From positions 1 through 37,224 of the IMG/VR virus record IMGVR_UViG_2512047041_000009: a stretch of 37,224 bases of DNA; one strand, given 5' to 3'. A program made the position numbers. Shown here one piece after another: positions 3,001 to 6,000 of this stretch (positions within the stretch are counted from its first letter, which is position 1; every line of letters starts with the position of its first letter). This stretch comes from a virus (taxonomy: Duplodnaviria > Heunggongvirae > Uroviricota > Caudoviricetes).

Positions 3001-6000
3001 TGGGTACAAATCCGTCTCCGTCATCGTCTCAGTACCTCATCAATTGCCCGGTTCATCCGCGCAATCGCCACCCGGGCTGCCTGTTCACTGCGCACATCAA
3101 ACGCCGGGCGCACAAACGGGTGTGGTGGCATATTCACGGTACCCATTTCCACAAACCGCCAGTAGAAGGCATTGCGGGGATTATCCGCCTTCATGGTGTT
3201 ATCACTGTTGCCGGTGTCCGGATTAACACCACGGATATGCACACCGGATTCCATCCCGCCATCGCGGGAACGCCGGGAAAGAACCACCACATTGCGGCGC
3301 AGTTTTCCCCTGCGCACCGGTGCCCGTGACACCACTTCGTTCTTCAGTACATTCGCCCCCGCACGGGTTGCCTCACGCAACACCCGGTTGTTTTCCGCAC
3401 CACTCAGAAGCTGCAAATCGCGACTGATATCCTCAAGCCCCGAAAAATCCAGCAGGGTTTCGATCATTTTTCCCCTCCCAGCCGACAGAGAATTTCCAGA
3501 CGCCCGCCGGTCGCATCCGGCACCGGCCCCCCGACAACATTCAGAATTCGGTCACGCCACGGGCCGCTCAGCACATGCAGTCGTGACGCCGCCGTGATTT
3601 TCCGTCCTGACGGACCGCGCACCCAGATGCGGATTTCCGCCTGCGCCATTTCCGCACCGGACTGCATCCGCTCCCGGCTGCTCCTGCCCCGGATATCCGC
3701 ATGAATTTTCCCGCATGACACCCACTCTTCCGTCATTTCTCCGGCAGCATTACGGGTTAACACCGGGTTCAGAACACTTATCATCTGTGTCAGACGACCT
3801 GCAGATATTGCCATCCCCCCCCTCCTCATAACACCGTCGGACAACGCAAATCGTAAATCAGCACGGACACAGAAAACGGCAGTTCCCCCTGCACGAGGTC
3901 TTCCCGCTCAGCAAGATCCGGATTCCGGTACAACATCCCGGTCAGGCGCATGGCAGCCCCCTTCATCCGGGTTAATGCCTCGCCCGGGATCAGTTCACCG
4001 TCCTCACGGATTACCTTATCCCGGCTGCCCTGAATGTAGGCCAGCAGCACAGCTGTAGCCTGACGAACCTTGTCCATCAGCATGTCATCATCCGCGTCAT
4101 GGTCAACACGCAGATGAGCCTTGATTTCTTCCAGTGTCAGTAATGCTGTCACTTTCCACCTCCTGCATCCCGCCCTCGTTTTGCAGCCAGGGTCCAGCCT
4201 GATGAATGAGCTTCTCCGGGTTTATCACCGGTCATGCTGTTGCAGTGCCACAACGAGCCCCCCCACGTCACCGTATCGCCGGGGTGGTAGGTTTCGCCGG
4301 TTCTGAATACACCGCGATAGAGCATCACCGGCAGGGAAAATGTTTTTTCCGTACACTGGCCACTGCTCTGCCGGACCACCACAGTGAACGACCGTTCGCC
4401 GGTCATGCTGACGTCAATATCGGCCACCCCGTCAACCAGGCATTCCCATCCCCGCATCCCGTGCGTTTTTTCATACGCCCGCCAGAGTCCGCCCTGGTGT
4501 GTGGCATACGTGCCCCGGGGAAAGGATTTTTGCTCATCAATCGCCGGGAATATTTCCAGTGCCGTGGCATCACGCCCGTCCTGTGGAGCCGGCAGGGCAC
4601 TCACCGCATCCAGAACCGCCTTCTGCAGAACTTCCGGATCGTAGTCACGACCGTCGCGCGGAACGGGGATATGACTCACGGCATCCGTCACCATCTGCTC
4701 GAGCATCGGACGCACATCATCCGGTGTGATACTTTTTCCATCTGCCGGTACCGGAAGTTTTCCGACAGCGTCATTCACCGCCCTCAGCAGCACCTCCGGA
4801 TCATAATCACGACCATCGCGCGGAGCAGGGATATGACTCACTGCGTCCTTCACCATCTGCTCGATCATCGGGCGTACATCATCCGCAGTGACACTTTTAC
4901 CGTCCGCCGGTACCGGTATTTTCGCGACCGCATCATTCACCGCCTGCTGCAGCACCTCCGGATCATAATCACGACCATCGCGCGGAGCAGGGATATGACT
5001 CACTGCGTCCTTCACCATCTGCTCGATCATCGGGCGTACATCATCCGCAGTGACACTTTTACCGTCCGCCGGTACCGGTATTTTCGCGACCGCATCATTC
5101 ACCGCCTGCTGCAGCACCTCCGGATCATAATCACGACCATCGCGCGGTACCGGAATGGCCCCCACGGCGTCATTCATCATCGCCTGCAGAACAGGGCGCA
5201 CCTCATCCACCGTCACATGCTTCTGTAACAGAGCAGACAGGGAAGCCAGTTTCTCTTCAAACGCCCCCGACTGTGCGGCCATCTTCTCCTCAAATGTGCG
5301 CTGTAAATCCGCCAGCACCGTGGCGAATTCTTCACCCAGCGCACGGATAATGGACAGTTCACGCTCTGTCATTTTCGCAGTATCCCCCTGAACATCGCCT
5401 TCACCGCATCACGCTCTGTTTCGCTTATGGCCTTATTACCGTCAGATGCGCCGTCAGGCAGTTGTGATGAAACTGTTTTCCCGGTCGACGCGAACGGATC
5501 CTCACGGGCATCACGACGGGACAGCGCCTCCAGACTGTAGTTCTGCTGCTGAAGATACAGTGCATCACCGCCGGCCAGAGGCGGCAGGTTCTCCCGTTTA
5601 CGGGCCTCATTGGGCGTGAGAAGCGTATTTTTCACCGCATCCCCCAGCGTTTTCATGCGCCGCTCACTGTCCATTCTCAGCAGCGTGGTGACATCAAATT
5701 CTGTACTCTCGTTTTCCCCCGTTTCCAGCGCCTCATCCAGTAACAGTTCAATGGACTCAATCAGCGTCTGCAGGCACTGGGAATAATACTGCTGCTCCAG
5801 CGCCTCCACGTTGTCACTGGAAGGCGGTTGTCCCACGCCAATCTTGTAGGCCGGGACACGGAACACCGAACAGACAATTTCAGCAGTCATCTTCAGTTGT
5901 TCCACCGTCTGCGCATCCACCGGTGAAAACGTCGTGGGGTTGTATTTTGCCCCGTTGCTCAGAATGGCCGTTTTCCCCGCATTTTCGCCTGTATACCCGC

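Follow-up and report, generated by a model that had tools for sequence, protein, structure and literature searches.

A candidate portal-vertex fibre gene of lambdoid prophages, with a repeat stalk of variable copy number and recurrent in-frame fusion to the portal gene

Results

A perfect 162-bp tandem repeat lies within gene X

The window analysed here is the whole 37,224-nt IMG/VR virus record IMGVR_UViG_2512047041_000009, an Escherichia coli lambdoid prophage that shows 93% identity to Marienburgvirus JLK-2012 around the gene of interest. That gene, called X throughout, is encoded on the minus strand between an HK97-type portal gene and a head-tail adaptor gene, and its 407-amino-acid (aa) product has a fibre-like architecture with a perfect 162-bp tandem duplication in its stalk. 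The features that bear directly on X are listed below, with open reading frames (ORFs) read from translation and structural assignments taken from an AlphaFold2 (AF2) model and its predicted local distance difference test (pLDDT) scores.

4149..5372, minus strand: gene X, 407 aa, fibre-like; corresponds to phrog_1289 and to the C-terminal half of phrog_2271
5217..5372, minus strand: N-terminal amphipathic helix of about 50 aa (aa 1-52), a putative anchor or oligomerisation element; AF2 helix 3-52, pLDDT 84-92
4587..5216, minus strand: acidic stalk (aa 53-262) of alternating 25- and 29-aa helix-loop sub-repeats, from repeat analysis and AF2
4953..5114, minus strand: perfect 162-nt unit, copy 2; 162/162 identical to copy 1; sister alleles have one or three copies
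4791..4952, minus strand: perfect 162-nt unit, copy 1; 162/162 identical to 4953-5114
4152..4586, minus strand: conserved C-terminal beta domain (aa 263-407, 145 aa) with two CBM5/12-like Trp/Tyr motifs and invariant Cys311 and Cys377
5384..5388, minus strand: run of five G residues (G5) within the final portal codons; with G5 portal and X are separate, with G6 they are fused in frame
5369..6733, minus strand: HK97-type portal gene, 454 aa, whose stop overlaps the X start; PF04860 E 2e-81, TIGR01537 E 2e-106

The two adjacent blocks that had first drawn attention to this locus as identical do match at every one of their 162 positions. At an offset of 162, the exact match at 4787-4985 extends the periodic stretch to 4787-5147 (361 nt), equal to two perfect units plus 37 nt, and Tandem Repeats Finder reports a period of 162 with 3.3 copies over 4615-5147 (92% matches). 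A perfect tandem copy of this length excludes a chance origin. On one side of the pair a related unit is present at 4629-4790, as the original prediction had stated, with a measured identity of 82.7% in place of the approximate 85% given there. The block on the other side, 5115-5276, is 60.5% identical overall; its first 33 nt continue the perfect repeat before divergence sets in, and the alignment identifies it as a first half-unit that has diverged, in place of the rearranged partial copy suggested before.

The units are in frame within the minus-strand ORF 4149-5372. Each 54-aa unit is composed of two sub-repeats, as proposed before; their lengths are unequal, however, with a 25-aa sub-repeat, IPxPRDGRDYDPEVLQQAVNDAVAK, followed by a 29-aa sub-repeat, IPVPADGKSVTADDVRPMIEQMVKDAVSH, rather than about 27 aa each. 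Both begin with an [IL]PxPxDG loop and continue as a helix.

Repeat copy number varies between otherwise identical alleles

The two-copy allele of X is found without mismatch in the complete genome of strain AF57, and with one mismatch each in the complete genomes of ABU 83972 and MCJCHV-1. Its occurrence in three independent complete genomes argues against an artefact in the window. Another IMG/VR locus (L055) is 99.3-99.9% identical to the window across 9 kb, and its 353-aa X equals the window's X minus exactly one 162-nt unit, with no mismatch; the 461-aa X of AR_0013 equals the window's gene with three perfect units, again with no mismatch. A single background therefore carries an allelic series of one, two and three copies encoding 353, 407 and 461 aa. 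The X genes of 80 related E. coli viral contigs encode proteins of 353, 407, 461, 515 and 569 aa, length classes separated by 54-aa steps; a 245-aa form that is three units shorter also occurs in E. coli, and perfect neighbouring units are present in four other arrays.

Read from these sequences, the series shows that 162-bp units expand and contract via slippage or unequal recombination, altering only the length of the stalk. Because alleles with one, two and three copies are otherwise identical, unit slippage must have been recent and an assembly artefact is ruled out, even if one-copy draft alleles might be collapsed assemblies. Both the recent expansion and the variable protein length expected at the outset are borne out by this comparison among relatives. 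The one-, two- and three-copy series also offers a fast-evolving marker for tracing lambdoid and Stx prophages.

A single G in the portal gene decides between separate and fused X

The last codons of the portal gene include a G tract that is also part of a Shine-Dalgarno-like AGGGGG upstream of the X start codon. In the window the tract has five residues (TTC AGG GGG ATA CTG CGA AAA TGA) and the portal ends in FRGILRK-stop. Fused alleles carry one extra G, read through as FRGDT(A/E)KMTEREL, and encode a portal-X protein of about 860 aa. In-frame fusion is found in about a third of related E. coli loci, a feature beyond anything in the original prediction. Of the 82 E. coli loci that were scored, 53 have G5 and 27 have G6; in the other two the sequence breaks off inside X and does not include the junction.

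Both states are seen on one junction haplotype and across several repeat classes. A neighbour-joining tree built from 870 nt of flanking sequence at 83 loci (54 G5, 29 G6) requires at least five changes of state, and two groups with identical 870-nt flanks contain both G5 and G6. For one junction haplotype, exact matches in complete E. coli genomes number 366 records for G5 and 752 for G6. The G6 form is carried by phages 2851 and YYZ-2008, the G5 form by BP-4795, 1717 and JLK-2012. Phage 2851 is reportedly infectious. Most other Enterobacterales lack a G-run at this site, where they have AGAGGA...ATGA, and their portal end is conserved as M(L/F)RG(L/I)L(T/R)K-stop; from this it follows that the two-gene state is ancestral and that G6 is a recurrent derived fusion. 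A distant lineage has a separate portal-X fusion of its own (P0246, 1237 aa), and in a Pfam scan of 10 long X homologues the portal was the only other domain. Naturally occurring and apparently viable portal-X fusions thus provide a ready-made experiment on what cargo a portal C-terminus can carry and on where the fibre lies.

Two further observations concern the fused alleles. X is truncated (280 or 379 aa) in 4 of 27 G6 loci (L025, L054, L059 and L060) vs 0 of 53 G5 loci, a difference that rests on few, non-independent loci and may reflect relaxed selection once X is fused. In the phi330 record (L191, PV189401) several frameshifts that resemble homopolymer errors fall within 3875-6617, in the portal, X and gp10 genes; since they are probably sequencing errors, the G6 call for phi330 is uncertain and is not relied on here.

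Predicted helical stalk and conserved beta domain of X

The N-terminal helix shows only a weak heptad pattern, the best register placing hydrophobic residues at 7 of 15 a/d positions. The stalk has a pI of 4.4 and a net charge of -16, and in the AF2 model 13- and 17-residue helices alternate along it, separated by 12-residue loops rich in Pro, Gly and Asp. The C-terminal region is modelled as a confident beta domain. Across the family this domain has a mean column identity of 42-64%; certain Trp, Tyr and Gly residues and two Cys are invariant, and identity between proteobacterial classes reaches 50-65%. Invariant Cys311 and Cys377 are accompanied by near-invariant His292 and His376 (window about 4240-4500), an arrangement that suggests a disulfide or a metal site.

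Pfam CBM_5_12 (PF02839) matches X with an E of 6e-4 at 20.2 bits, below the cutoff of 26.2, and precomputed PF02839 matches are present on many X homologues. The predicted model shows the C-terminal fold to be CBM5/12-like, that is, of a chitin-binding family. In a Foldseek search of predicted viral structures, the domain matched phage collagen-repeat, CBM5/12 and tail-fibre proteins. A PDB sequence search with X returned only chance-level matches to designed helical repeat proteins, and Foldseek with the full X model against the PDB gave nothing below E 1e-3.

Collagen-like Gly-X-Y sequence, defined as at least four triplets, is present in 69 of 149 family representatives, with a maximum of 41 triplets, and these runs are inserted at PxDGKD loops. 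Since Gly-X-Y runs imply a trimer, we infer from the sequences of these relatives that X is probably a trimeric fibre.

X belongs to a large and systematically misnamed family

The size of the family had likewise not been anticipated. In an exhaustive profile-free search, X retrieved 5,540 clusters (50% identity) at E <= 1e-3 and 626 at the stricter E <= 1e-30. Standalone proteins of 214-600 aa, corresponding to phrog_1289, make up most of the family; distant standalone members match this profile too. Full-length X matches both phrog_1289 and phrog_2271 (E 1.4e-194 and 1.9e-256); the latter is an 859-position portal-plus-X profile, and most database homologues are long "portal proteins". X occurs in 1,244 of 5,426 complete E. 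coli genomes (23%), in up to 8 copies per genome.

Outside E. coli, 43 loci with gene context were compared: 26 species-level genome loci covering Enterobacterales, Pseudomonas, Marinobacter, Haliea and Pseudoduganella, 14 metagenomic viral loci, and the phages SP-016 (Salmonella), RHph_X2_26 (Rhizobium) and PAJU2 (Pseudomonas). All 43 have the order protease-capsid fusion, portal, X, adaptor Ad1, and X forms an ORF of its own in every one. In 26, a small-ORF homologue is inserted between capsid and portal. X overlaps the portal end mostly by 4 nt and by up to 17 nt in some loci, with a 4-nt gap in RHph_X2_26, and it overlaps the adaptor start by 4 nt in most.

X was also considered as a portal protein, the name it bears in databases. 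This was ruled out, as X has no match to PF04860 or TIGR01537 and the 454-aa ORF upstream contains the complete portal domain; X is so named because fused G6 alleles carry that name. In the RefSeq entries for AF57, ABU 83972 and MCJCHV-1 (L193, L194 and L195; locus 878-3462) portal and X, although in the ancestral two-gene G5 state, are annotated together as a "phage portal protein, frameshifted" pseudogene, and the NCBI pipeline appears to take the fused G6 form as its reference. Homologues from Klebsiella and Salmonella bear the name "gp6-like head-tail connector protein, partial", which would imply an X-adaptor fusion. This was rejected once the Klebsiella set was checked: the proteins there are contig-end fragments that start within the repeat and are followed by a separate adaptor gene. 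Three Klebsiella contigs (L088-L090; position 1-576; P0288, P0285), one of 902 kb and two shorter, end inside the X repeat array, from which it follows that the array breaks short-read assemblies and spreads this second wrong name. X is among the commonest uncharacterised genes in the structural modules of proteobacterial prophages, and one that is systematically misnamed.

Discussion

X as a candidate accessory fibre at the portal vertex

Taken with its gene position, the architecture of X leads us to infer that it is a virion component of the portal vertex, most plausibly an accessory fibre. The location we lean towards, tentatively and at somewhat less than even chances, is external, where portal and adaptor meet, with X forming a collar or a whisker-type fibre; it is suggested by the collagen runs, the CBM-type head and a gene just upstream of the neck genes. 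The coupling to the portal gene through an ATGA overlap, and the place before the connector gene, were both described in the original prediction and are confirmed, with the overlap at 5369-5372 and adaptor Ad1 downstream. In such a fibre, the N-terminal helix would anchor or oligomerise X, the helix-loop repeats, collagen-like in many relatives, would form a trimeric spacer of freely variable length, and the C-terminal tandem CBM5/12-like domain would bind a conserved ligand, either a glycan (e.g. a GlcNAc-containing polymer) or a conserved virion partner. Alternatively, this domain may serve to nucleate trimer folding. The G6 fusion would then be a tolerated variant, with free X still made from the retained Shine-Dalgarno sequence and ATG.

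The closest analogies are the fibritin (wac) whiskers of T4 and the gp12 appendages of phi29, both trimeric fibres encoded by genes adjoining portal or neck genes, as X is. Like X, they combine an N-terminal anchor, a stalk in which loops interrupt the helical segments, and a small domain at the C-terminus, and the number of segments varies between relatives. Unlike a set of homologues, however, they share no detected sequence or fold homology with X; the C-terminal domain of X is CBM5/12-like where theirs is a foldon or tailspike, and for X the neck is a putative location. With respect to CBM family 5/12 modules proper, the domain of X is embedded in a larger conserved fold and scores 20.2 bits against a Pfam cutoff of 26.2; carbohydrate binding is putative.

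Several points weigh against an external fibre. To our knowledge, the portal C-terminus is inside the head in all solved portals, so at least the fused copy of X should be internal, and the fusion is present in 2851, YYZ-2008 and the 752 complete E. coli records of one haplotype. The C-terminal domain is conserved far above what one would expect of a host-receptor binder. The AF2 monomer has low pLDDT in the repeats, about 50-60, and the window's own X has no Gly-X-Y run. Published electron microscopy of phi330 does not mention a collar or whiskers, and no published study of X, or work placing it in the virion, was found in the literature; the paper on phage AH14a concerns a different, SPP1-like module. 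A public virion proteome exists for phi330, a plaque-forming Pankowvirus (PMC12502783; PRIDE PXD061229).

A possible internal fibre tethered to the portal crown

The leading alternative, which we hold to be doubtful though a serious contender, is that X sits inside the head as a protein tethered to the portal crown, at about 12 copies, or four trimers, per virion. It would be bound non-covalently when separate and covalently in G6, and might organise the DNA end or leave with the DNA. By position it would correspond to SPP1 gp7 or Mu F, or else to the P22 portal barrel. The fusions described above, common and recurrent as they are (at least five changes among 83 loci, 29 of them G6; identical flanks with both states; the exact G6 haplotype in 752 complete-genome records; 2851 and YYZ-2008; the second, distant fusion P0246), speak for such a location, as does the portal being the sole other domain in the 10 long homologues scanned. 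The start-stop overlap suggests synthesis at about 1:1 with the portal, and a thin fibrous shape would fit through the portal and tail channel. There is also some likeness to the portal barrel of P22, a long helical C-terminal extension into the head, in that G6 puts a 50-aa helix after the portal crown; the P22 barrel, however, is integral to the portal and has neither repeats nor a beta domain, whereas X is ancestrally a separate gene.

Other evidence runs counter to an internal position. This includes the strong acidity of the stalk, the separate X ORF of all 43 loci from outside E. coli, and the truncated X in the few, non-independent G6 loci noted above. Since G6 keeps the Shine-Dalgarno sequence and ATG of X, free X may still be made; the fusion need not show the site of free X and is not decisive on location. 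We know of no collagen-like or CBM5/12-type modules in phages other than on external fibres. A more specific version, in which a siphophage portal crown bears four internal trimeric fibres whose attachment is toggled between covalent and non-covalent by G5/G6 and whose length is retuned by slippage, seems unlikely; if true, these fibres might organise or escort the DNA end, or bring a peptidoglycan- or glycan-binding head into the periplasm.

Other candidate readings: decoration protein, assembly factor and frameshift site

That X decorates the whole shell, as a capsid decoration or head-fibre protein on hexamer centres or three-fold axes, is quite unlikely. X is a head-module gene, nothing else in the module is a candidate cement protein, given a genome of some 55-60 kb, and a variable stalk with a binding tip resembles Hoc-type adhesins. 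Its presumed trimeric, collagen-like architecture also recalls SPP1 gp12, a collagen-like head-module trimer, given the Gly-X-Y runs in X relatives. SPP1 gp12, however, is small, is encoded beside the capsid gene and binds hexamer centres, whereas X has a conserved 145-aa beta domain and a gene that is coupled to those of the low-copy portal and adaptor, away from the capsid gene. The portal is the only fusion partner ever seen, and PDB sequence and fold searches gave no similarity to gpD, Soc, Hoc, Dec, gp12 or pb10. The capsid decoration raised in the original prediction is for these reasons of coupling and similarity not favoured.

A non-structural role is less probable again: X might act during assembly, in portal incorporation or as a scaffold-like chaperone, and be missing from mature virions. 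Its helical, acidic and repetitive character is that of scaffolding proteins, its gene adjoins and is coupled to the portal gene, and its length varies widely without apparent harm; yet a scaffold-like linker is already present within the protease-capsid fusion, and scaffolds do not feature collagen runs or a CBM-like beta domain of such high conservation. As a scaffolding protein proper, X was rejected, because the fusion gene has its own linker and X ends in the conserved beta domain. The slot that X occupies had been described as one normally held by protease, scaffold or capsid genes; here those functions lie upstream, in the 645-aa fusion at 6945-8882. Gene position immediately downstream of the portal is also shared with SPP1 gp7 and Mu F (PF04233), which are portal-associated, low in copy and sometimes fused to the portal. 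No PF04233 match is found in X, and the architecture is entirely different, leaving gene position as the only likeness.

Finally, it is highly improbable that the G tract is a programmed -1 frameshift site yielding a minor portal-X fusion beside the normal portal: a -1 slip of tRNA-Gly on GGG in AGG GGG ATA would give exactly the G6-encoded protein, and the rare codons AGG, ATA and CGA are found after the window's tract, but the X XXY YYZ heptamer that defines such sites is absent, the sole downstream hairpin begins about 35 nt away and is weak (z = -2.4) where a stimulatory structure is expected 5-9 nt downstream, other alleles swap the rare codons for ATT and AAA, and conservation in relatives is lacking, as most other genera have AGAGGA with no slippery run and the G-run is not conserved outside a few genera.

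Head module and other features of the window

The head module is encoded on the minus strand in the order small terminase subunit, large terminase subunit, protease-capsid fusion, 73-aa ORF, HK97-type portal, X, adaptor Ad1, head-closure protein and gp10-like protein. Neighbours of X referred to above are as follows.

6945..8882, minus strand: prohead protease-major capsid fusion, 645 aa, upstream of the portal gene; Peptidase_S78 and Phage_capsid, TIGR01554, NF045541
6679..6900, minus strand: small conserved ORF of 73 aa between the capsid and portal genes; PHROG match to phrog_829
3826..4152, minus strand: head-tail adaptor Ad1, gp6-like, 108 aa, GTG start; PF05135, phrog_40

X and Ad1 share a GTGA overlap at 4149-4152, and the ribosome-binding site of Ad1, GGAGG, is encoded within the tail of X. 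A scaffold-like linker region is present inside the protease-capsid fusion. The large terminase gene (8946-10608) is broken near 9633 into ORFs of 329 and 268 aa by a 1-nt insertion relative to JLK-2012 (CCGCTTGGGC vs CCGC-TGGGC); this prophage copy may be packaging-defective through its split terminase, or the extra base may be a sequencing error. The small terminase gene contains a 27-nt tandem repeat, 85% identical, at 10669-10722.

Elsewhere, the window holds an integrase, a CI-like repressor, replication genes, a porin gene, two tRNA genes and a NanS-like esterase. The tRNAs, a tRNA-Arg(TCG) and a tRNA with a CAT anticodon, lie at 19400-19561, with a full OmpC/NmpC-like porin gene adjoining at 20331-21473. 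The CAT-anticodon tRNA was called as Met; its equivalent in the related phage phi330 is annotated as Ile2, reading AUA. These prophage tRNAs correspond to the rare codons CGA and ATA among the last codons of the portal. At 16145-18106 a 653-aa protein combines DUF1737, sialate O-acetylesterase (SASA) and DUF6645, as is typical of NanS-p esterases from Stx-type prophages; no stx gene was seen within the window. At the 5' end of a DnaC/IstB-like gene (24755-25663) lies a perfect two-copy tandem repeat of 21 nt (25566-25607); it sits just downstream of an adjacent 330-aa ORF and may be iteron-like.

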